A DNA stretch of 64,000 nucleotides, from assembly GCA_963780685.1 (NCBI GenBank), contig CAWACZ010000012.1, forward strand, positions 195,238 through 259,237, given 5' to 3'. Positions 4,008 through 44,887 of this stretch are shown in pieces. The DNA is from an uncultured Acidobacteriota bacterium (GTDB lineage Bacteria; Acidobacteriota; Vicinamibacteria; Vicinamibacterales; CAVVIG01). The stretch's first letter is position 1. Every line of letters starts with the position of its first letter. The notes beneath the pieces are model-generated. The model worked only from the letters and a program-made list of their open reading frames with translations. It did no database searches and was not told the origin of the DNA. The position numbers were made by a program, and so were the translations under genes.

Positions 4008-6299
4008 ATGAGGTCGATGAACAGTATCTGCTGGGCGGCCGCGTGGCTGGTCTACGCGTCGGCCAACGCCGCCGACGCACAAACCGCGACGATCGAGGGC
4101 CGCGTCGTCGATGCGCGCTCCAACCAGCCGCTGGCCCGGGTCGTGGTCCACGTCGAGCATCAATCGGTGTTTGCGGACACCGACGCAACGGGCGCGTTCA
4201 CGCTGTCGCTGCCACCAGGCCGGCACACGATCTCGGCGTTCTTAATCGGCTACGCCATCGTCCGTCACGTCGTTGACGTCGGCGTCGGTGCGACAGAGGA
4301 GTTGGTGATCGAGCTCTCGGAAGGCGCGGGCCGCTATGAAGAAGTCGTGACCGTCGAGGGCTCGGTCCGCGACGACACGGACGGCGCGCCTGGCGGTTCC
4401 GTCCTGCACGGACGCGATCTGCAGGCGTTGCGCGGGGTGATGCTGGACGATCCGCTGCGCGCGCTGCAGGCGCTCCCCTCCGCAACCTCGACCAACGACT
4501 TCTATAGCGAGTTCGCCGTGCGCGGCAGCAGCTTCCGTCATCTCGGCCTGGCGATCGACGGCATCCCGGCTCCGTACTTGATCCATACGATTCACGCCGT
4601 GCCTGACGGCGGTTCGATTGCGATGGTCAACAGCGAGGCACTCGGTGCAGCGTCGCTGCGGCCGGGCAGTTACCCGCAACGCCTGGGCCGCCGGCTCAGC
4701 GCGCAAATCGATCTGAGTACGCGCGACGGCGACCGCGAGGGCGTCCACGGCCGTGTGGGGCTGAGCGGAACCAGCGCGAATGCGATTGGCGAGGGCCCAT
4801 TCGCAAGCGGCCGCGGGGCGTGGGTCGCCTCCGTGCGGCGCAGCTATCTCGACTTCCTGCTCGATCGCATCGATCCCGAGGGGAGCGTCGGATTCGGATT
4901 CAGTGACGCGCTCGGCAAAGTCACCTTCGACGTGAACCCACGTCACCAGCTGCAGTTGCTGACGGTGATCGGCCGCTCGCTCTTCGACGAAGCGCCGGAG
5001 GATCTCGGCGTGAATGACGAGGTGCAGGCGAGAAGCCGCGCCTGGCTCACGGCCGCCACGTGGCGGTATACGCCGGCCGCGCGGCTTGCGGTATCGCAGC
5101 GTGTGTATGTGACGGGGATGGACTTCAGGAACGTCAACAAGAACGACGTGCTGCTCGATGGCGGCGAGGCGAACGACGTCGGCTGGCGCGCCGACGCGAC
5201 CTACGCGCTCCGCGATGGATGGATCGCCGAGTTCGGCGGCGACGTGCTGCGATCGACTGCGGCCCGCGCGCGGCAACGCACCTTCGACGGCGCGACCGAG
5301 CCGGTGACGCTCAGCAACTACTCGGCGACCGGCGGCGCGGCCTCCGCGTACGCACAACTATCGGCGCGCATGGGCCCGGTCATCATCACTCCGGGAGCTC
5401 GCGTGGATCGCTGGCAGGCCACCGACACGACCACGTCGTCGCCATGGATCACCGGCGAATGGGCGATGACAAGCACGATGCAACTTAGCGGTGGTGCGGG
5501 TATCTACCGACAGTTCCCCGATCTCACGATGCTGAACGGTCTCAACGGCGACCCGCATCTCCGTCCCGAGCGCGCGGCGCACGCGGACCTCGCCATCGTC
5601 CGGACGTTCGCTGATTCAGTGAGTCTGCAGGTAACGGGCTATCGACGCGACGAGCGCGACGTCTTGCGGATCGCGGACTCGGAGCCGCGGCGATTGACCG
5701 ACGGAACGATTGTGCTGGGGCGCGGCGATGCGCGATGGTCGAATCGCCTGAGCGGCCGCGCGGATGGTGTCGAGGTCCTTCTCCGCCGCGACGCACCGGA
5801 TGCCCTGTCAGGCTGGATCGCGTACGCATACTCTCGACATCGTTACGACGATGTGGTGACAGGCGAGCGGTTTTGGAATGACTACGATCAGCGTCACAGC
5901 CTGTCGACCTACGCGCTCTATCGCCTGTCGAACCGCTCGAGCCTTGGCGCGAAGTTTCGTTACGGCAGCAACTATCCGATCACAGGCTATGTTGGACAGC
6001 AAACATTCTCGCCGAATGCTCCCCCGCTGTTCGGCGGCGAGCGACCGCTGTTCTTTGGCCTCACCGATCTGCGCAACACGCTGCGGCTGCCCGTCTATGC
6101 CCGCCTTGACGTCCGCGCCGACCGCGCCGTGTCGTGGTCGGGACGCCGCGTCACGCTGTTCGTGGAAGTCGCCAACGTGCTGAACCGCCGCAACGAGCGG
6201 AACGTGCCGTATTCGGTCGGCCGCAATGGACAACTGAATGGCGTCACCGATTCGCTGTTGCCCATCGTGCCGTCTGCCGGGTTTGTGATTGAGTTCTAG
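4008..6299 (+). CDS. TonB-dependent receptor-like outer-membrane protein with N-terminal CarboxypepD_reg domain
   Basis: SD GAAGGAGG at 3991-3998. Signal peptide MRSMNSICWAAAWLVYASANAADA, then TIEGRVVDARSNQPLARVVVHV...TDATGAFTLSLPPGRHTISAFLIGY. Long beta-rich body ends in the terminal ...PSAGFVIEF. Confidence 0.85.
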   Translation: MRSMNSICWAAAWLVYASANAADAQTATIEGRVVDARSNQPLARVVVHVEHQSVFADTDATGAFTLSLPPGRHTISAFLIGYAIVRHVVDVGVGATEELVIELSEGAGRYEEVVTVEGSVRDDTDGAPGGSVLHGRDLQALRGVMLDDPLRALQALPSATSTNDFYSEFAVRGSSFRHLGLAIDGIPAPYLIHTIHAVPDGGSIAMVNSEALGAASLRPGSYPQRLGRRLSAQIDLSTRDGDREGVHGRVGLSGTSANAIGEGPFASGRGAWVASVRRSYLDFLLDRIDPEGSVGFGFSDALGKVTFDVNPRHQLQLLTVIGRSLFDEAPEDLGVNDEVQARSRAWLTAATWRYTPAARLAVSQRVYVTGMDFRNVNKNDVLLDGGEANDVGWRADATYALRDGWIAEFGGDVLRSTAARARQRTFDGATEPVTLSNYSATGGAASAYAQLSARMGPVIITPGARVDRWQATDTTTSSPWITGEWAMTSTMQLSGGAGIYRQFPDLTMLNGLNGDPHLRPERAAHADLAIVRTFADSVSLQVTGYRRDERDVLRIADSEPRRLTDGTIVLGRGDARWSNRLSGRADGVEVLLRRDAPDALSGWIAYAYSRHRYDDVVTGERFWNDYDQRHSLSTYALYRLSNRSSLGAKFRYGSNYPITGYVGQQTFSPNAPPLFGGERPLFFGLTDLRNTLRLPVYARLDVRADRAVSWSGRRVTLFVEVANVLNRRNERNVPYSVGRNGQLNGVTDSLLPIVPSAGFVIEF

Positions 6300-38330: not shown

Positions 38331-38400
38331 CGTAGAATTGTCAGCTCGCAGGTCGAGAGAAACGTTCAGAGGCCGTTGAATCTTGGAAAAGGTTGATCCC

Positions 38401-39069
38401 ATGTCGCTATCAGGCCAGATGCCGGTTCAGCCCGGAGAGCCCGCGCCCGACTTCGCCGTGTCGGCCGTGCACGAGGATCGGATGATTTCGTTGGCAGACT
38501 ACCGCGGAAGGACGCCGCTGCTGCTCGGCCTGTTCAGGGGCCTGTACTGCCCGTTCTGCCGGCGTGCGCTGGCCCAGATGGCCGTCTCGTCCGACCGCCT
38601 GAAATCGCTCGGCGTCGATTCGCTGGCCGTTGTCGGCACCGACGTGGAGAATGCGCGGCTTTATTTCAAGTTCAGACCGACGCGCATGGCGCTCGGCGCC
38701 GACCCGAATCTCGTCACCCACCGCTCGTACCGTGTGCCGCGGCCGGAGCCTACGTCCGAGTTGATGCAAGCGATGGCGAACACACAGATCAACCCGACTG
38801 GAGAGCTCCCGGCACCGCTGCCGGTGCCCGCCGCAGGGGCCGCCCTCAACGCGCTCGACGGCTATCAGAGCACGCCGGCCGATCAGCGGGACTTCGAGTC
38901 GGCGTTTACGCAGTTGAAAGGCCAGTTCCTGATCGACCGCGGCGGCGTCGTGCGGTGGGCCCACATCGAGGGCCAGGAGGGCCCCTCCGGTCTCGGCAAG
39001 TTCCCTTCGCACGACGAATTGATTGACGCGGCGAGTATCGTCATCGGCGGCACACGGGTCGGCACTTAG
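38401..39069 (+). CDS. AhpC/TSA-type peroxiredoxin-like protein (Cys form)
   Basis: MSLSGQMPVQPGEPAPDFAVSAV...RTPLLLGLFRGLYCPFCRRALAQM...FLIDRGGVVRWAHI. Confidence 0.8.
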   Translation: MSLSGQMPVQPGEPAPDFAVSAVHEDRMISLADYRGRTPLLLGLFRGLYCPFCRRALAQMAVSSDRLKSLGVDSLAVVGTDVENARLYFKFRPTRMALGADPNLVTHRSYRVPRPEPTSELMQAMANTQINPTGELPAPLPVPAAGAALNALDGYQSTPADQRDFESAFTQLKGQFLIDRGGVVRWAHIEGQEGPSGLGKFPSHDELIDAASIVIGGTRVGT

Positions 39070-39190: not shown

Positions 39191-39231
39191 TTGACATGCA
39201 CTAGTCAAGTAATCTATTGATTACTTGACTA
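39191..39231 (+). promoter_or_regulatory. TTGACA -35 box plus 30-bp perfect palindrome (13-4-13) overlapping the -10 region and the start codon of the ArsR-rhodanese gene
   Basis: TTGACA at 39191-39196. TAGTCAAGTAATC-TATT-GATTACTTGACTA spans 39202-39231, and its last base is the A of ATG 39231. Confidence 0.6.
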
Positions 39232-39977
39232 TGACCGATCCCCACCGAACCTTCAAGGACCGCCTCTACGGTCAGTTCGCTCGCCTCGGCAAGGCGCTCG
39301 CCAGCCCGCATCGCATCGAGATGCTCGAACTGCTCGCACAGAGCGAACGCACGGTCGATTCCCTGGCGACGGAGATGGGCTTGTCGCTGGCGAATGCTTC
39401 TCAGCATCTGCAAGCGCTGCGACAAGCCGCGCTGGTCGAAAGCCGCAAACAAGGCCTATTCGTCCACTACCGGCTCGTCGACCCGTCGGTCTTCGACCTC
39501 TGTGCCGCCCTGCACACGGTGGCCGAGCGACGTCTCGCCGACTTGGATCGCCTCGTGCGCGAGCACTTCGGGGACCGTTCCGACGCCGAGCCGGTGCGCA
39601 TGCGCGATCTGCTGGATCGGGCGCGGGCGAGCGACGTCATCATTCTCGACGCCCGGCCCGCAGCCGAGTACCAGGCGGGCCATATCGCCGGCGCGATTTC
39701 GGTTCCCATCGACCAGCTCCAGAAACGTCTGCGGTCGCTGCCAGTCGACAAGGAGTACGTGGCGTACTGCCGTGGCCCCTACTGTGTGTACGCCGATCGA
39801 GCGGTCGAACTCCTTCTAAAGAGTCGCCGCCGCGCCCGGCGTCTGCTCGAGGGATTTCCGGAGTGGCGCGCGGCGGGATTTCCCATTGCACGAGGGAGCG
39901 ACGCGCCGGCGGTGCCAGGACGGCCGCGACGGCGCGGTTCACGCCGTCCTCGAAAGCGCCTGCTGACGTCGGTTTGA
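39231..39977 (+). CDS. ArsR-family HTH regulator fused to a rhodanese domain
   Basis: FARLGKALASPHRIEMLELLAQSERTVDSLATEMGLSLANASQHLQALRQAALV (ArsR wHTH), then VIILDARPAAEYQAGHIAGAISVP...YVAYCRGPYCVYADRAV (rhodanese). Confidence 0.85.
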   Translation: MTDPHRTFKDRLYGQFARLGKALASPHRIEMLELLAQSERTVDSLATEMGLSLANASQHLQALRQAALVESRKQGLFVHYRLVDPSVFDLCAALHTVAERRLADLDRLVREHFGDRSDAEPVRMRDLLDRARASDVIILDARPAAEYQAGHIAGAISVPIDQLQKRLRSLPVDKEYVAYCRGPYCVYADRAVELLLKSRRRARRLLEGFPEWRAAGFPIARGSDAPAVPGRPRRRGSRRPRKRLLTSV

Positions 39978-40041
39978 TTCGCTTGTCGTGGCGACGCTGA
40001 CCGACCGCAGACCCCTCGAGCGCGCACGTGATCGGAGGTGA

Positions 40042-40527
40042 ATGATGGAGAAAGCCGTGATGCGACGACGCCTCGAGGTCCAGGGGTTTCTGCTGGACGA
40101 TGTTGCGCTGCGACAGATCGGCAGGTGGCTGCGGTTCACCCCGGCTCTCTGCGCCACGGGCATCGCCATTGGGACTCTCCTCGCCTCTCCGTCGATGTTG
40201 TGGGCGCTTGCGGCAACCGCTGCTGCCGGCGCGCTGTTTCCCAGACATCCGTTTGATTTCCTCTACAACTTCGCTATTCGGTTCCTGACGAGGACGCAAC
40301 CACTTCCGGTCAATCGAGCTCCAAGACGGTTCGCGTGCGGCGTGGCGGCACTCTGGCTCGCTGGTACGGCGATGGCGTTCGAAGGAGGTCAGCCTGCGCT
40401 TGGCTACATCCTCGGAGGAGCGATAGTCGTCCTCGCCACTCTCGTCAGCTTGACGGATATCTGCATCCCTTCGGTTGTTTACCAGTTCCTGTTCGCGCGG
40501 CGCGACCGGAAGGTCGTACGCGTGTAG
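40042..40527 (+). CDS. DUF4395-like membrane protein
   Basis: 161 aa; VQGFLLDDVALRQIGRWLRFTPALCATGIAIGTLL...PFDFLYNFAIRFL...NRAPRRFACGVAALWLAG...LVSLTDICIPSVVY. Confidence 0.75.
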   Translation: MMEKAVMRRRLEVQGFLLDDVALRQIGRWLRFTPALCATGIAIGTLLASPSMLWALAATAAAGALFPRHPFDFLYNFAIRFLTRTQPLPVNRAPRRFACGVAALWLAGTAMAFEGGQPALGYILGGAIVVLATLVSLTDICIPSVVYQFLFARRDRKVVRV

Positions 40528-40560
40528 ATCGAAGCCCTGCACGAGAGGTGGAGGTGACAT

Positions 40561-41343
40561 GTGGCGATGACGTGCCCCGTTGATTTCGACACCGTGACGC
40601 TACGCGCCGAAATTCAGACGATGTATTCGCAGGTCGCCGCCACGCCCGAAGGCTCGTTCCACTTTCATCGTGGACCAGAGTACGCCGTTACCAGGCTCGG
40701 CTACGACGCGGCGGAGCTCGCCACTCTCCCCATCACGGTCACGTCGTCATTCGCGGGTGTTGGCAATCCTCACGCTATCAGGCCCATCGAGAAGGCAGCC
40801 GTCGTGCTCGACGTCGGCTGTGGATCTGGAACCGATCTACTCCTCGCTGCGCGGCATGTCGGACCTGCCGGCCGCGCGATTGGCGTGGACATGACCGAAG
40901 CAATGCGAGCACGAGCATCAGCGGGAGCCGTGCAATGCGGACTCGCTCATGTCGACGTGCGTGATGGCGATGCAACGCGCCTGCCGCTCGAAGATGCCAG
41001 CGTCGACGTGGTCATTTCGAACGGCGTGCTGAACCTCGTACCCGACAAACACAAAGCCATCGGCGAGATCGCCCGCGTCTTGAAGCGCGGCGGCGGTGTA
41101 CAGATTGCCGACATCGTGATCAAGGAGATCCTGCCGGAAAGCACCCTTCGCGACATCGATCTCTGGACCGGTTGAATCGCCGGCGCTCTGCTGGAAGCAG
41201 AGCTTGTCGACGCCTTTGCGGCGGCCGGCTTCGACGATGTGCGCATCGTCGCCCGATTCGATTGCTTCGCAGGAACGACCAAAGAGCGGACGGCGAGACG
41301 GTACGGCGTCGGCGGTGTGAATCTCGTGGCGTCGCGACGATAG
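40561..41343 (+). CDS. ArsM/UbiE-like SAM-dependent methyltransferase with in-frame UGA (candidate selenocysteine) at 41173-41175
   Basis: FHFHRGPEYA, SFAGVGNP, SAM motif VLDVGCGSGTD, VDVVISNGVLNLVPDK, then DLWTG-TGA-IAGALLEAELVDAFAAAGFDDVRIVARF...YGVGGVNLVASRR* in the same phase (783 nt = 261 codons). Homologs as I recall carry GCIAGA at this spot. Confidence 0.75.
41185..41203 (+). promoter_or_regulatory. Candidate bacterial SECIS hairpin for the methyltransferase UGA
   Basis: GCUCUGC-UGGAA-GCAGAGC: a perfect 7-bp stem with a GG-containing pentaloop, starting 9 nt after the UGA. Confidence 0.5.
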
Positions 41344-41377
41344 GCCCACCCGGCTATCTCGAAAGAGGAGGCTCATC

Positions 41378-41872
41378 ATGACAATGAAGGTAGCGATTCG
41401 ACGGTCCATTGCTCCCGCTCTGATCGTTGTCGTCACGACCATGCTTTCCGCGTGGGCCAGCCAGGCTGCGGCGCAAACGGCTCAGAAGACGCTGTACGAC
41501 CGGCTCGGGGGCGCGTACAGCATCGCGACGGTTGTGGACGACTTCATCGAGCGCTTGCTCGTCAACGCAACACTCAACGCCAATCCCGCCATCAACGCCG
41601 CGCGGGCACGAGTCCCGAAAGCAGGCTTGAAATTCCAAGTTACGGCGCTCGTGTGCGAGGTCACCGGTGGTCCATGCAGGTACACGGGCCGAGCGATGAA
41701 GGAGTCACATGACCATCTCAACATCACGCAGGCTGAGTGGGATGCAATGGTCGCAGATTTCAGACGGACATTAGAACAGTTCAAGGTACCGCAGCAGGAA
41801 CAGCAGGAATTGATCGCGATCGTCGGCAGCACGAAGAAGGACATCGTCAAGTCGGCGACCGCCAGCCGATAG
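41378..41872 (+). CDS. Truncated hemoglobin (group I-like) with an N-terminal signal peptide
   Basis: MTMKVAIRRSIAPALIVVVTTMLSAWASQAAA, then KTLYDRLGGAYSIATVVDDFIERLL...MKESHDHLNITQAEWDAMVADFRRTLEQFKVP. Confidence 0.8.
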   Translation: MTMKVAIRRSIAPALIVVVTTMLSAWASQAAAQTAQKTLYDRLGGAYSIATVVDDFIERLLVNATLNANPAINAARARVPKAGLKFQVTALVCEVTGGPCRYTGRAMKESHDHLNITQAEWDAMVADFRRTLEQFKVPQQEQQELIAIVGSTKKDIVKSATASR

Positions 41873-41885
41873 CACAGGTGCGATC

Positions 41886-42635
41886 ATGATTTTTCGACCT
41901 TTCTACTATTTCGACCTCGGCTGCGCCGCCTACCTCTTCGGCTGCGGCACGCTCGGCAAATGCGCAGTAGTAGACGCGCGCACCGACGACGTGGAGGCCT
42001 ATGCCGCTTTCGCGACCGCCAAGAACATGCACATTACGCACGTCATCGACACGCACGTCCATGCCGATCATCGATCGGGCGGGCCGGAGCTGGCCCGACG
42101 AACCGGAGCCAGCTACTGCCTGCACGAATCGGCGGACGTGAGGCTGCCATTCACGCCTCTGCAAGATGGACAACAGATCGAGTTGGGAAATACAAGGGTC
42201 ACCGTACTGCACACGCCGGGACATTCACCGGAAAGCATCTGCTTGGTCGTCACCGACCTCAGGCGAGGGCCAGCTCCCTGGTTTGTCCTGACGGGTGACA
42301 CGCTGTTTGTGGGAGCCGTCGGACGACCCGATCTTCCCGGCCATGCCGAGGAAAATGCCGGACAGCTGCACGCGAGTATTCACCAGAAGCTGCTGACCCT
42401 GCCCGGCGACGTGGAGATCTACCCGGGGCACTTCTCGGGCTCGGTGTGTGGCACCGGATTGAGCGGCAAACCGACGAGCACGATAGCGTTCGAACGACGC
42501 TGGAACCCGATGTTGTCGCTGGAGCAGAGCGCGTTCATTGCGGCACTCAGCGATGTACCGCCCAAACCCGAGGCCATGGAGCGCATCCTCGCGTCCAATC
42601 GTGGTCTTCGTGAGGAGACAGAGATCTCCGTATGA
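41886..42635 (+). CDS. MBL-fold hydrolase (glyoxalase II / persulfide-dioxygenase-like)
   Basis: YLFGCGTLGKCAVVDA...ITHVIDTHVHADHRSGG...VLHTPGHSPESICLVV...FTGDTLFVGAVGRPDLPG...IYPGHFSGSVCG. Confidence 0.85.
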   Translation: MIFRPFYYFDLGCAAYLFGCGTLGKCAVVDARTDDVEAYAAFATAKNMHITHVIDTHVHADHRSGGPELARRTGASYCLHESADVRLPFTPLQDGQQIELGNTRVTVLHTPGHSPESICLVVTDLRRGPAPWFVLTGDTLFVGAVGRPDLPGHAEENAGQLHASIHQKLLTLPGDVEIYPGHFSGSVCGTGLSGKPTSTIAFERRWNPMLSLEQSAFIAALSDVPPKPEAMERILASNRGLREETEISV

Positions 42636-43912
42636 TCGACGCCGTGGCGGCTCCTATTCAGATCCGCCTTGGCCTGCGCGAGAACGCCGCGCAATTCGCG
42701 CTGCTGGTCCTCGTCAACGCATTCGTTGGCGCGATGGTCGGCCTCGAGCGCAGCCTTCTCCCCGCCATCGCCGAGCACGACTTTCAGCTGGCTGCACGTA
42801 CAGCCGCGCTCTCGTTCATCGTAGTCTTCGGTCTGACCAAGGCGGCGACCAACTACGTCGCCGGCCGCCTCGCCGACCGTCTCGGACGCAAACAGATACT
42901 CATTGCCGGCTGGCTGGTCGCAGTGCCCGTCCCGTTCCTGCTGATGTGGGCGCCGAGTTGGGCGTGGATTCTGGTTGCGAACGGGCTGCTGGGCGTCAGT
43001 CAGGGATTCACCTGGTCGACGACCGTCATCATGAAGATCGATCTGGTTGGTCCGGCTCGCCGCGGCCTGGCGATGGGACTGAACGAGTTCGCCGGCTACG
43101 TCGCCGTCGCCGCGGCTGCGTTCGCCACGGGTGTCATTGCGGCGCGCACCGGTCTGCGGCCGCAACCGTTCTATCTGGGCGTCGCGTTTGTCGCGTTGGG
43201 CCTCGTCCTCTCGGCACTCGTTCGAGAGACGGCGCCGCACGCCGCATTGGAGGCACAGCAGCGCGGTTCGGCCCCAAGCCGCCTCGGCGCCCGAGAAGTC
43301 TTCTGGCGCACGACAGTTTCTGATCGCGACTTGTCTGCAGTGAGCCAGGCGGGTCTGGTGAACAACCTCAATGACGGGATGGCCTGGGGGCTCTTCCCAC
43401 TCTTCTTCGCCGCGGCAAGCATGGACTTCGCGCAAATCGGAGTGCTCGCCGCCATCTATCCGCTGACGTGGGGCGTGGGCCAGCTTGTGACGGGGGCCCT
43501 TTCCGACATGATTGGCCGCAAATGGCTCATCACCGGCGGGATGTGGATTCAGGCCGCAGCGATTGGTCTCGTCAGCGTCTCGACGGGGTTCGCGGGTTGC
43601 GCGGTCGGCGCCATCTTGCTTGGCGCCGGTACGGCGATGGTTTATCCAACGCTGCTCGCAGCGATCGGCGATGTGGCGCACCCGTCATGGCGGGCATCGG
43701 CCGTGGGCGTGTACAGATTGTGGCGAGATCTCGGCTATGCGATCGGCGCACTGTTGGCCGGCATCTGCGCCGACTGGTTGGGGCTGGCCGGCGCGATGCG
43801 AGTCGTGGCTGCCGTGACGCTCATCTCCGGCCTGGTGGTCGCGATCCGAATGGAAGAAACGCTGTCGCTCGGGAACCTCGGACACGCAGAACCCCTGAAC
43901 CCTGAACCTTGA
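42632..43912 (+). CDS. MFS transporter
   Basis: 426 aa, 12 predicted TM helices; GRLADRLGRKQILIAG motif. ATGA-type overlap with the MBL gene stop. Confidence 0.85.
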   Translation: MIDAVAAPIQIRLGLRENAAQFALLVLVNAFVGAMVGLERSLLPAIAEHDFQLAARTAALSFIVVFGLTKAATNYVAGRLADRLGRKQILIAGWLVAVPVPFLLMWAPSWAWILVANGLLGVSQGFTWSTTVIMKIDLVGPARRGLAMGLNEFAGYVAVAAAAFATGVIAARTGLRPQPFYLGVAFVALGLVLSALVRETAPHAALEAQQRGSAPSRLGAREVFWRTTVSDRDLSAVSQAGLVNNLNDGMAWGLFPLFFAAASMDFAQIGVLAAIYPLTWGVGQLVTGALSDMIGRKWLITGGMWIQAAAIGLVSVSTGFAGCAVGAILLGAGTAMVYPTLLAAIGDVAHPSWRASAVGVYRLWRDLGYAIGALLAGICADWLGLAGAMRVVAAVTLISGLVVAIRMEETLSLGNLGHAEPLNPEP

Positions 43913-43928
43913 ACCAGGAACCCGAGAG

Positions 43929-44334
43929 ATGCCCTGTTGCTCGACCTTCCAAGATGCAGCGGAACGGCAGTTCACCGAGAAGATTGCTCAACGAGATCTC
44001 ACCACCTATCGGCGGAACGGCGCGGGAGTCACGACTCGGCTGCTACGCGACGCGCTCGTCACGGCTGGGGCAACGAAACGGATCGCTCTTGGATGTCGGT
44101 GCCGGCATCGGCGCCCTGACGTTTGAGCTCCTCGAACTTGGCGTTGCGCGAGCGATCGCAGTCGAGGCTTCCGCGGCGTATGTAAGAGCGGCGTCCGAAG
44201 AGGCTGCGATCCCCGCAGTGGTACCGCCCGCCACCACCGCGGCCGGTCGCCCGGGCGTGCGGCGCGCGTCGGGGCCACCCGTAGCGGATCGGCCGGAAGC
44301 CTGGGGACGCGACCCGTGGAGCGGCGCGACGTGA
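43929..44334 (+). pseudogene. Class I SAM methyltransferase with N-terminal CC motif, frameshifted near 44075 and apparently truncated after about 44205
   Basis: MPCCSTFQDAAERQFTEKIAQRDLTTYRRNGAGVTTRLLRDALV, then in another phase GSLLDVGAGIGALTFELLELGVARAIAVEASAAYVRAASEEAA. No recognisable C-terminal half in any phase. Confidence 0.55.
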
Positions 44335-44338
44335 TCGG

Positions 44339-44887
44339 TCAACGAGGTGGTCGACGTCTGGCGACGCCGAGTTCGGCCAGCTTGGCTGCGACGGTCCGCC
44401 CGTGCGTCGCGGGGCTCACCTGTTTGTCGATATAGAGGATCCGGCCGTCGACGCCGATGTAGAAGGTCCAACGCGAAGCGAACGGTTGATCTTCATCAAC
44501 GACACCGTATGCCTTCGCGACGCTCTTGTCCGGATCGCTGAGCAGCGGATAGTCCACACCCAGGGACCGCGCGAAGGCCTGGTTGGCGTCCAGCTGGTCG
44601 ACGCTGGCGGCGAAATAGGCCACGTCGAACGCCCGAAAGTCGTCGCCACTCTCACGGAGTGACTTGCACTCGGCCGTTCAAGCGGGAGAGAACGCCTTCG
44701 CAAACCACGCGAGGACGACTGCCTGTTTCCCCTTGTAATCCGCAAGGGTGTACTGCTTCCCGTCAGACCCCCGCAGCGAGAACGAAGGGGCGACGTCACC
44801 CACCTTCAGTCCGCCTGCGGCAGTGACCGCTGTCGCCAACGCTACGGCCAAGGAAATCCAACCGGCCATCTTGGGTAAGACGCGCAT
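44339..44887 (-). CDS. Secreted peroxiredoxin/Bcp-like redoxin with in-frame UGA (candidate selenocysteine) at 44678-44680
   Basis: ORFs 44678..44887 and 44339..44623 share one phase. Joined read: signal peptide, GDVAPSFSLRGSDGKQYTLADYKGKQAVVLAWFAKAFSPA-TGA-TAECKSLRESGDDFRAFDVAYFAASVDQLDANQAFARSLGVDYPLLSDPDKSVAKAYGV. The peroxidatic Cys position (T/S-P-x-C) is the TGA. Confidence 0.8.
44645..44663 (-). promoter_or_regulatory. Candidate SECIS hairpin for the redoxin UGA
   Basis: Minus strand GUCACUC-CGUGA-GAGUGGC: a 7-bp stem including one G-U pair, starting 14 nt after the UGA. Confidence 0.45.

Follow-up and report, generated by a model that had tools for sequence, protein, structure and literature searches.

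In the bigR-blh type operons of BigR and SqrR, the promoter of the ArsR-fold repressor contains an AT-rich inverted repeat on which the repressor itself sits, and the genes under its control encode a membrane transporter along with a beta-lactamase-like persulfide dioxygenase (PMC9774590). ArsR-family persulfide sensors have also been described in a sequence-similarity network (PMC10054925). A further described system, the S. aureus cst operon, contains CstR, CstA, CstB, SQR and TauE, and the S-methyltransferases MddA, MddH and MddM1/MddM2 act on H2S and methanethiol in a SAM-dependent manner and are proposed detoxifiers (PMC11445057, PMC12904073), with MddM-type genes reported to be induced by oxidative stress, H2S and MeSH (PMC12904073). 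Here, we compare these systems with an operon from soil Acidobacteria which, judging from its sequence and its relatives, is probably self-repressed and responds to reactive sulfur species (sulfide, persulfide or polysulfide).

Within the window, the whole stretch of 64,000 nucleotides that was analyzed, seven closely spaced plus-strand genes (39231-44334) lie behind a TTGACA box (Table 1). The intergenic gaps are, in order, 64, 33, 33, 13, −4 and 16 nt; this packing agrees throughout with the original prediction except for a trivial difference in the third gap, given there as 34 nt. All of the predicted domain identities were borne out by Pfam and NCBIfam searches. No terminator-like sites above chance were found inside the operon, and Sec is used twice within 4 kb at the locus.

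Table 1 Features of the operon and its flanks, in positions of the window.
Feature	Position	Strand	Remarks
Peroxiredoxin gene upstream of cassette	38383-39069		
−35 box TTGACA	39191-39196	+	Read directly
Operator, 13-4-13 inverted repeat	39202-39231		Arms TAGTCAAGTAATC / GATTACTTGACTA, perfect
Regulator gene	39231-39977	+	
DUF4395 gene	40042-40527	+	Pfam PF14340, 67.8 bits
ArsM-like methyltransferase gene	40561-41344	+	Readthrough of UGA at 41173-41175
SECIS-like hairpin	41185-41203	+	8-bp stem, GGA loop, starts 12 nt after U of UGA
Truncated haemoglobin gene	41378-41872	+	Pfam Bac_globin, 46.3 bits
MBL gene	41886-42635	+	PDB best matches 3tp9, 3r2u
MFS gene	42632-43912	+	Pfam MFS_1, 145 bits
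Second methyltransferase remnant	43929-44334	+	Alignment with intact L004 orthologue; Pfam fragments weak
Sec-peroxiredoxin gene downstream of cassette	44339-44887		

The TTGACA claimed upstream of the regulator gene is present as an exact hexamer, a conserved −35 box of sigma-70-like type, and the palindrome behind it has perfect arms (39202-39214 and 39219-39231). It had been called a perfect 30-bp palindrome, but only 26 of the 30 bp are symmetric, the 4-nt centre TATT being non-palindromic. Broadly as proposed, it overlaps the putative −10 (TCTATT) and the start codon, its right arm ending on the A of the ATG. Among inverted repeats with perfect arms of at least 11 nt and a spacer of at most 8 nt, it is the sole example in the window, where block shuffles give a chance expectation of 0.03, and its G+C content is 27% compared to 65% for the window. 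TCTATT (39213-39218, 16-nt spacer) is the best −10 candidate and a weak element, a point we count against a sulfur response; because it lacks an A at position 2, a consensus promoter scan found no site at the operon. In 41 of 83 loci an exact TTGACA precedes the regulator gene by 70 nt or less, standing a few nt upstream of the operator in close relatives, and TCAAGTAATCTATTGA / TATTCAA-N8-TTGAATA-type repeats occupy the equivalent place in most related loci. The order TTGACA-operator-ATG recurs in Acidobacteriota, Myxococcota, Gemmatimonadota, Actinomycetota and other loci. This conservation of promoter and operator across phyla (82 related loci) supports the palindrome as an operator, to which we infer that the regulator binds. 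The regulator mRNA probably has little or no leader, and in relatives the ATG directly follows the operator.

The regulator itself joins an ArsR/SmtB winged helix-turn-helix (wHTH) domain (Pfam HTH_5, 39.9 bits) to a C-terminal rhodanese domain (Pfam Rhodanese, 53 bits) with the loop C180-R-G-P-Y-C185, confirming the fusion and CRGPYC loop recognized at the outset. The surrounding VAYCRGPYC is near-invariant among the 82 related loci, which span several phyla: C180 is found in 82/82 sequences and C185 in 81/82, and the only further Cys, C91, lies early in helix 85-113 and is kept in 32% (alignment A1). A BigR/SqrR-type sensor was ruled out, as the wHTH has no conserved Cys across the 82 aligned sequences and the regulator reaches only 42.5 of the 155 bits that the BigR model requires; the likeness earlier drawn to persulfide-sensing ArsR repressors therefore fails for the type of sensor. 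AlphaFold (mean pLDDT 90.5, pTM 0.57) models both domains confidently but leaves their relative orientation uncertain. The family is large, with at least 7,862 matches at E ≤ 1e-3 among 8,000 candidates scored, the best 120 of which are 74-91% identical, and 430 representative clusters (50% identity) reach E ≤ 1e-30. We found no functional study of this common regulator type in the literature.

To which genes this regulator belongs can be read from a regulon survey of the 82 loci. MFS genes were present in 45, MBL genes in 40, ArsM-like methyltransferases in 32, DsrE in 24, SQR in 17, the second methyltransferase in 11, TauE in 8 and MddA in 2. In close relatives the core consists of MBL and MFS (24/31 and 28/31 loci), and in farther branches the same regulator heads SQR and DsrE, TauE or MddA genes, providing an independent pointer to reactive sulfur. 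DsrE and TauE were identified by Pfam matches; MddA next to the regulator scores 368.7 bits (cut-off 270), and the SQR-like flavoprotein, at 214 bits, stays under the 525-bit cut-off of the type III SQR model. SQR, DsrE and TauE are not encoded in the present operon, so that its own link to sulfur rests on the MBL enzyme and on these relatives. As for the neighbourhood, the arrangement regulator-(methyltransferase)-MBL-MFS-(methyltransferase 2) is kept in relatives, but the seven-gene set is not kept as a unit; the closest relative, L004, is without DUF4395 and globin.

The MBL protein finds its best PDB matches in the CstB-type structures 3tp9 (4.4e-40) and 3r2u (5.9e-38), with which its motifs HVHADH, HTPGH, GD and PGH..GSVCG align. 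The position of CstB Cys201 is retained, in keeping with the persulfide-dioxygenase-like enzyme originally suggested, and the protein stands alone without a rhodanese domain. The MFS gene overlaps the MBL gene by ATGA, through which it is predicted to be translationally coupled, and its product is 60-86% identical in close relatives.

The ArsM-like SAM methyltransferase is a selenoprotein with U205 at the in-frame UGA, and Sec serves as its catalytic residue. In 16 homologues, which come from Acidobacteriota, Actinomycetota (including Rubrobacteraceae) and Chloroflexota loci, UGA stands at this very codon and the coding sequence 3′ of it is also conserved. The SECIS-like hairpin keeps its consensus structure in 15 sequences, with compensatory double changes at 2 of 8 pairs, and this covariation, together with the in-frame UGA, bears out the UGA-containing methyltransferase as first read. 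Across the 32 loci with such a gene, the ArsM-like enzymes keep one Sec or Cys. The seventh gene, described earlier as a broken second methyltransferase, is indeed the remnant of a class I SAM methyltransferase with an N-terminal CC motif and a lost 3′ half: aligned with the intact 219-aa orthologue in L004 (11501-12157), it shows one extra base, a +1 frameshift near 44075, and similarity stops after about 44205.

DUF4395 and the exported globin recur as rare additions, in 4 and 2 of the 82 loci, respectively, a scarcity that we count against a sulfur role. The DUF4395 membrane protein has an invariant Cys, C141, in the motif C-I-P-S (alignment A2), and in the contexts seen the family mostly adjoins methyltransferase genes (S-methyltransferase-type). 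A rhodanese-DUF4395 fusion adjoins a divergent homologue of the regulator and an MFS gene, and L097 offers a second full example (regulator | methyltransferase - DUF4395 - Sec-methyltransferase - MFS - MBL-rhodanese). The globin carries an N-terminal signal peptide and belongs to the group 1 truncated haemoglobins, among which its best solved relatives fall; its proximal His aligns (MKESH). In L025 and L055 the homologues likewise have a signal-peptide-like N-terminus, and they retain the Cys pair VC..GGPC. A haem protein behind a Sec-type signal peptide would need haem insertion outside the cytoplasm, which also counts against sulfur.

ArsM ancestry and Sec make metalloid or selenium substrates possible, again to the detriment of a sulfur role. 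An operon for methylation of and resistance to metalloids or chalcogens (As, Sb, Se or Te), in which the CX4C loop binds As(III) or bridges Se as a selenotrisulfide, the ArsM-like enzyme methylates and the MFS protein exports the product, would suit the ArsR-family regulator, a methyltransferase nearest to ArsM and the paired use of Sec. Arsenical MFS pumps exist (ArsK, ArsJ), and rhodanese domains are able to carry selenium. We nevertheless consider such an operon unlikely. With 202.5 bits, the methyltransferase stays under the cut-off of 263 set for the arsenite methyltransferase model, and it is missing the equivalents of ArsM Cys72 and Cys174 (VGNP and SNGV instead of CGNP and SNCV); the regulator has neither a CXC nor an alpha-5 Cys site; arsB, acr3, arsC and arsH are absent from the families recurring beside it in the 82 loci; and the SQR, DsrE, TauE and MddA genes headed by its relatives belong to sulfur metabolism. 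Of the reactive sulfur/selenium detoxification module in the original prediction, the sulfur half is upheld by the MBL enzyme and by these genes in relatives, while selenium, like arsenic, finds no support beyond Sec usage.

It is also improbable, in our estimate, that the regulator is a general thiol-oxidation sensor (of peroxide, hypochlorite or disulfide stress) whose CX4C loop forms a disulfide on oxidation and which governs an antioxidant island. Peroxiredoxin genes flank the cassette here, and a 1-Cys peroxiredoxin or Sec-peroxiredoxin adjoins it in several relatives, so an oxidant signal would fit too, to the disadvantage of sulfur; the reported oxidative-stress induction of MddM-type genes (PMC12904073) points the same way. 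However, a catalytic rhodanese is a sulfur-transfer module and its whole active-site loop is near-invariant, beyond the two Cys; the conserved partners (persulfide-dioxygenase-like MBL, SQR, DsrE, TauE, MddA) act on reduced sulfur rather than peroxides; and the upstream peroxiredoxin-like gene is not conserved beside the regulator. Finally, although the 64 nt that separate the regulator gene from the next, and the DUF4395/globin insertion relative to the closest relative, show a mosaic array, it is very hard to believe that the palindrome controls the regulator gene only and that the six downstream genes are a separately transcribed chance string, given a single strand, gaps of at most 64 nt, one 4-nt overlap, no terminator signal above chance, and the same families directly downstream of the regulator, in varying order, in dozens of species-level genomes.

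For the response to reactive sulfur that we favor, a simple scheme can be proposed. A thiol-state regulator dimer on the operator would block RNA polymerase; the catalytic rhodanese Cys180 would take up sulfane sulfur, Cys185 would resolve the resulting persulfide, leaving a di- or trisulfide within the loop, and the change may be relayed via the long helix 85-113 to lower DNA affinity. The CstB-like MBL enzyme would then oxidize low-molecular-weight persulfides to sulfite or thiosulfate, with the coupled MFS protein transporting either this product or a thiol carrier across the membrane. DUF4395 and the single-Sec ArsM-derived enzyme could form a methylation branch that makes volatile methylated products from sulfide or sulfane sulfur, in parallel to mycobacterial loci, where an MddA-DUF4395 pair follows the same regulator. 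The exported haemoglobin may bind or oxidize sulfide outside the cytoplasm, and the seventh gene would be a pseudogene. Related genomes suggest that the regulator switches on oxidation, export and probably methylation of toxic reactive sulfur.

Like BigR and SqrR, the regulator has an AT-rich inverted repeat in the promoter of its own gene, with a persulfide-dioxygenase-like enzyme and a transporter downstream. Whereas sensing by BigR and SqrR relies on two cysteines in helices alpha-2 and alpha-5, its near-invariant cysteines are those of the fused rhodanese loop; the transporter is MFS rather than the TauE of bigR-blh type operons, and the nearest relatives of the wHTH are Mb0332 and Rv0081 rather than BigR or SqrR. 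Among solved structures, the nearest to the wHTH is that of Mycobacterium bovis Mb0332 (PDB 2kko, 3gw2), which covers residues 1-100 of a longer protein and has 45% identity over about 94 residues and a TM of 0.9 to target. We take Mb0332 to be the orthologue of M. tuberculosis Rv0324, and both may carry the same rhodanese loop. In the papers that we found, Rv0324 is treated only as a regulator in hypoxia-linked expression networks (PMC4916473), and several papers on it deal, at least in part, with drug tolerance. We found no literature joining 'Rv0324' with 'rhodanese'. In E. coli, the ArsR-type repressor YgaV is functionally paired with the rhodanese protein YgaP; these are separate proteins, the rhodanese being membrane-anchored, whereas the present regulator is one polypeptide with a CX4C loop. 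The YgaV structure 3cuo matches the regulator weakly.

With the cst operon the locus shares an MBL enzyme nearest to the CstB type (3r2u) and, at the level of the regulator family, a regulon including SQR, a TauE-like exporter and rhodanese functions. The cst repressor, however, is of the CsoR family and ours of the ArsR family, CstB has two rhodanese domains while the dioxygenase-like MBL protein here stands alone, and the methyltransferases, DUF4395 and globin are additions. ArsM and the Sec ArsM-fusion families (NF041537, NF041536, NF047649) have the same fold and N-terminal domain as the methyltransferase here, whose Sec takes the place of the last As(III)-binding Cys of ArsM (G-[C/U]-[IL]-AGAL), but which has no AhpD, DUF2284 or UXPK extension and falls under every curated cut-off. 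The methyltransferases of the window are not MddA; in the ArsM-like enzymes a Sec or Cys nucleophile is conserved, a residue not required by thiol S-methyltransferases. In the Mycolicibacterium locus L047, the same regulator is followed by a true MddA and then by DUF4395.

The seven plus-strand genes placed by the original prediction in a single array were confirmed, with tight gaps of 64, 33, 33, 13, −4, and 16 nt separating the regulator, DUF4395 protein, selenocysteine (Sec) methyltransferase, truncated hemoglobin, MBL-fold enzyme, MFS transporter, and second methyltransferase, which establishes the anatomy of the predicted operon. The perfect 30-bp palindrome described ahead of them held up as two perfect 13-nt arms, but these are separated by a 4-nt center. 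The right arm terminates at the A of the first gene's ATG, and the repeat has a G+C content of 27%, compared with 65% for the window. No other perfect inverted repeat with arms of at least 11 nt was found in the 64-kb window, and block shuffles led us to expect 0.03 repeats of that kind. The best −10 candidate, TCTATT, lies within the repeat, 16 nt past the −35 box; a consensus promoter scan did not accept it. We consider the repeat a putative operator overlapping the promoter, for which phylogenetic footprinting across phyla is the main support: most loci carry TCAAGTAATCTATTGA(T/A)TACTTGA-type or TATTCAA-N8-TTGAATA-type repeats right before the regulator start codon, close relatives have the repeat a few bases 3′ of a (C)TTGACA box, and an exact TTGACA lies no more than 70 nt away in 41 of 83 loci. 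Because the ATG of related loci also directly follows the repeat, the regulator mRNA is probably leaderless or nearly so. Among the sequencing runs searched, no RNA run contained this stretch, and the DNA runs contained just 5–9% of the words sampled from it.

Coordinates of features in the window and in loci retrieved from related genomes (L numbers)
Feature	Locus	Position	Strand	Remark
AhpC/TSA-like, SelL-related redox protein gene	window	38383–39069	+	CPFC motif; 155 nt 5′ of the regulator promoter
TTGACA box	window	39191–39196	+	5′ of the inverted repeat
Inverted repeat, two arms	window	39202–39214 and 39219–39231		upstream of the regulator gene
Regulator gene	window	39231–39977	+	ArsR–rhodanese fusion
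Seven-gene array	window	39231–44334	+	
(M/V)A(L/M)TCPV segment	window	40561–40580		Sec methyltransferase
Recoded UGA	window	41173		Sec methyltransferase (gene 3)
Globin with VC..GGPC pair	window	41378–41872		gene 4
Globin with VC..GGPC pair	L025	12147–12632		Lysobacterales
Globin with VC..GGPC pair	L055	4226–4954		Acidobacteriota
Secreted Sec-peroxiredoxin-like gene	window	44339–44887	−	Sec at peroxidatic position (FSPA-U-TAEC); convergent
Tandem SAM methyltransferase genes	L003	11626–13960		
Methyltransferase–DUF4395 pair	L087	~4211–5483		
Rhodanese–DUF4395 fusion	L092	4392–5183		
Rhodanese–DUF4395 fusion	L093	387–1178		
Regulator, MddA, DUF4395	L046	8669–9920		Mycobacterium
Regulator, MddA, DUF4395	L047	8618–9963		Mycolicibacterium

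The regulator joins an ArsR/SmtB HTH_5-type winged helix-turn-helix (wHTH; PF01022, 39.9 bits, cut-off 22; NF033788, 79.7 bits, cut-off 55), which matches structure 3gw2 with an rmsd of 1.0, to a rhodanese domain (PF00581, 53 bits). Its AlphaFold model (mean pLDDT 90.5, pTM 0.57) consists of a canonical wHTH, a long helix at 85–113, a less confident linker, and the rhodanese domain; a structure search found no solved structure spanning both domains. In this model, C180 falls at the end of strand 175–179 and ahead of helix 182–197, with C185 in the first turn of that helix, so that the predicted rhodanese fold opens its active-site loop with a catalytic-position cysteine and the protein is a putative sulfurtransferase. 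The motif VAYCRGPYC, with its CX4C loop, is near-invariant across the 82 aligned sequences, C180 being kept in all 82 and C185 in 81. Besides these two the regulator has a single cysteine, C91, which just 32% of the sequences share, and the DNA-binding domain therefore lacks a conserved thiol.

These observations bear on how the repressor might sense its signal. BigR/SqrR repressors use a cysteine pair in α2 and α5 that forms a polysulfide bridge, and As(III)-responsive ArsR proteins use a CXC in α3 or a cysteine triad in α5. The BigR/SqrR-type pair is absent from the wHTH across the 82 sequences, and the score on the BigR model NF040642 falls far short of its cut-off (42.5 bits versus 155); the original prediction had likened the regulator to persulfide-sensing ArsR-family repressors, and on both counts sensing of the BigR/SqrR type is rejected. 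A check of the wHTH for As(III) sites likewise found no CXC and no cysteine cluster. The nearest solved wHTHs are those of Rv0081 and of a fragment (residues 1–100) of Mycobacterium bovis Mb0332, the latter at 45% identity. The Rv0081 group forms SSN cluster 3, which is largely uncharacterized and distinct from the BigR/SqrR cluster, and Mb0332 is not placed in that network (PMC10054925).

The regulator family is very large. A search of a 90%-identity cluster library gave at least 7,862 matches at E ≤ 1e-3 among 8,000 scored candidates, the best 120 at 74–91% identity. At 50% identity, 430 cluster representatives reach E ≤ 1e-30, and among the best 150 of these matches listed most are full-length two-domain proteins of ~220–235 aa. 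The 80 species-level genome loci that we retrieved come from Vicinamibacterales, other Acidobacteriota, Myxococcota, Gemmatimonadota, Mycobacterium, Mycolicibacterium, Rubrobacteraceae, Chloroflexota, Thiobacillus, and others.

To count the cargo of 82 loci we used tblastn with a protein panel, in preference to crude GC3-based ORF calls, which missed many genes. MFS (45/82) and MBL (40/82) genes are the most frequent, followed by DsrE-like (24), SQR (17), Sec-type and Cys-type ArsM-like methyltransferase (16 each), methyltransferase 2 (11), TauE (8), and MddA (2) genes. DsrE and TauE were matched by Pfam; the type III SQR model gives the SQR-like flavoprotein 214 bits, short of its 525-bit cut-off, and the MddA partner, the gene after the regulator in the Mycolicibacterium locus L047, scores 368.7 bits on NF045656 (cut-off 270), a model to which no window protein matched. 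The family's regulon is thus a sulfur-handling one, and the sulfur/selenium hypothesis of the original prediction was largely right for sulfur. The neighborhood conservation it called for was borne out for the MFS and MBL genes, present in 28 and 24, respectively, of 31 close relatives (≥68% identity, ≥3 kb downstream), but DUF4395 recurs in only 4 and the globin in only 2 of the 82 loci. Some relatives have tandem SAM methyltransferase genes after the MFS gene, as many as four different ones.

The closest locus, L004 (88% identity), has the order regulator, Sec methyltransferase, MBL, MFS, and methyltransferase 2, followed by a convergent Sec-peroxiredoxin gene. The window therefore departs from L004 in having DUF4395 and the globin inserted and gene 7 decayed. 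Gene 7 consists of two out-of-frame fragments of another methyltransferase, and against the intact 219-aa L004 orthologue it shows one extra base near 44075 and no similarity after ~44205. Assembly error is a possible explanation of the frameshift as far as the single extra base is concerned, but no base-calling error can account for the absence of the 3′ half that L004 retains; the gene has therefore decayed, beyond a base-calling slip. The Sec-peroxiredoxin gene, which gene callers broke into two ORFs in the window, adjoins the cassette convergently in L004 and upstream in two other related loci (L001 and L007). On the other side, the AhpC/TSA-like gene was not found beside the regulator in other loci.

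The best matches of the MBL enzyme are the CstB-type MBL-rhodanese proteins 3tp9 (E = 4e-40) and 3r2u (6e-38), ETHE1-type dioxygenases and glyoxalase II being more distant matches. Its HVHADH, HTPGH, TGD, and GSVCG motifs align with those of 3tp9 and 3r2u, and both the metal motifs and the cysteine aligned to CstB Cys201 are kept, so that the features of an ETHE1/CstB-type persulfide dioxygenase (HxHxDH, the His and Asp ligands, and a Cys201 equivalent) are predicted to be in place. Scores on curated models stay below the cut-offs (Blh, 55.7 bits versus 625; GloB, 74 versus 200.8), and the assignment is therefore one of family-level similarity only. The window enzyme lacks a rhodanese domain, and some relatives, such as L097, encode an MBL-rhodanese fusion. 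Gene 6, an MFS_1 transporter, shares an ATGA overlap with the MBL gene.

Gene 3, read through a UGA, encodes an ArsM-like class I methyltransferase, and it has the features of a bacterial selenoprotein gene: the in-frame UGA lies at a Cys position, at an identical codon in 16 homologues and with Cys in paralogues; coding conservation continues downstream; and the UGA is followed by a SECIS hairpin of 8 bp with a GGA loop, in which two pairs show compensatory double changes (15 sequences). Another Sec gene is located 3 kb away, and no tRNA genes were found in the 64-kb window. Two ArsM-like subfamilies are linked to the regulator, the first with the segment DLWTG-U-IAGALLE, in loci from three phyla, and the second with DLWAACIGGAAQ, which has Cys at the Sec position. 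Vicinamibacterales-group Sec methyltransferases carry an extra N-terminal cysteine, in (M/V)A(L/M)TCPV, that is missing from Actinomycetota and Chloroflexota homologues and that could pair with Sec as its resolving residue.

Aligned to solved ArsM structures, the window enzyme reads FAGVGNP where these have (W/Y)G(C/A)GNP, and ISNGVLNL where they have ISNCVINL. The As(III)-binding cysteines that mark ArsM (CmArsM C44, C72, C174, and C224) are not present as a set: of the three aligned positions just the last is preserved, by Sec, with C72 replaced by Val and C174 by Gly, and GSFHFHRG presumably corresponds to the C44 site, a position outside the alignment. The ArsM model NF008823 scores the enzyme at 202.5 bits (cut-off 263). 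Because no more than one aligned As(III)-binding position is kept, ArsM-like arsenite methylation is unlikely, judging from the published ArsM mechanism. An arsenic-resistance reading of the operon, which does pair an ArsR-type regulator with an ArsM-like enzyme, has a low probability.

DUF4395 has an invariant cysteine in a C-I-P-S motif, together with HPFD and YN motifs. In L092 and L093, a 263-aa rhodanese-DUF4395 fusion followed by an MFS gene is divergent from an ArsR-rhodanese gene with 47% identity to the window regulator, which gives a domain-fusion link of DUF4395 to predicted sulfur transfer. DUF4395 also adjoins methyltransferase genes in L087–L090, L095/L096, L097, L025, and L028. 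Its partner in L087–L090 is a Cys-type ArsM-like enzyme with 39% identity to the window enzyme, and the two seem to form a mobile two-gene module; there, the pair stands beside a sigma-54 activator and a histidine kinase, not an ArsR-rhodanese gene. In the mycobacterial L046 and L047, the regulator precedes a genuine MddA (methanethiol S-methyltransferase) and then the adjoining DUF4395, with MBL and MFS genes coming next in L046. L097 has the window's content reordered (regulator; methyltransferase–DUF4395–Sec methyltransferase–MFS–MBL-rhodanese), its Sec methyltransferase being called at 204 aa, ending at the UGA. A metagenome scan with DUF4395 gave three short loci only, and our literature search found only passing mentions of the domain, in two papers.

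Gene 4 carries a Bac_globin domain after a signal-peptide-like N-terminus, with a score (PF01152, 46.3 bits) and a full-length alignment that place it among group 1 truncated hemoglobins, its proximal His in MKESH standing opposite MPEAH. It is a putative heme-binding globin, and its N-terminal sequence points to export. The homologues in L025 and L055 keep both the signal-peptide-like N-terminus and the Cys pair, and lie near an ArsM-like methyltransferase gene, with DUF4395 in between in L025. The pair, VC..GGPC, is placed around the conserved GGP motif and possibly forms a disulfide, fitting a location outside the cytoplasm. Given their recurrence in other loci, DUF4395 and the globin are rare, recurrent add-ons and not chance neighbors.

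We conclude that a widespread cassette, predicted to be under the control of a rhodanese-fused ArsR repressor, is present here in one elaborated copy, and consider it fairly probable that the locus is a reactive-sulfur detoxification operon. In the mechanism that we propose, the regulator would repress by promoter occlusion and be switched by persulfidation of C180 and resolution by C185; the MBL enzyme would oxidize persulfide, the MFS transporter would act in export, and DUF4395 and the Sec enzyme would form a methylation branch. Truncated hemoglobins bind sulfide tightly, and the putatively exported globin may do so here. A more ambitious joint reading, which we regard as rather doubtful, is that single-Sec/Cys ArsM-derived methyltransferases and the Cys-bearing DUF4395 constitute a new enzyme system that turns sulfane sulfur, or rhodanese-delivered sulfide or selenide, into volatile methanethiol- or DMS-type products, and that is induced via a new class of one-component sensor whose signal is received by the catalytic rhodanese loop CRGPYC and not by the ArsR fold. 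If this reading is true, the sulfur-methylating enzymes of soil bacteria would include one more family, and a testable hypothesis on the ligand would be available for ArsR-rhodanese proteins as a whole, mycobacterial members included. A detoxifying role has recently been proposed for the MddA, MddH, and MddM1/2 H2S/MeSH S-methyltransferases, which have homologues in Acidobacteriota (PMC11445057, PMC12904073), and Rv0324 is treated as a regulator in hypoxia co-expression networks (PMC4916473). Full-text literature searches turned up nothing on a regulator that fuses ArsR to rhodanese, and no paper that links mddA with ArsR or Rv0324 with rhodanese.

The ArsR-rhodanese repressor is very common, in soil Acidobacteriota, Myxococcota, Gemmatimonadota, Actinomycetota, Chloroflexota, and Thiobacillus. 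The locus ties three poorly understood parts, namely DUF4395, ArsM-like enzymes without arsenic-binding cysteines, and apparently exported truncated hemoglobins, to probable sulfur detoxification, and the methylation branch, if real, bears on the sources of volatile sulfur (methanethiol, DMS) in soil. Known bacterial sensors of reactive sulfur include CstR, SqrR/BigR, and FisR, from which sensing via a fused sulfurtransferase domain would differ mechanistically. The locus is probably a variation on known reactive-sulfur detoxification operons, distinct in its proposed sensor mechanism, its probably arsenic-blind ArsM-like selenoenzyme, and its DUF4395 link.
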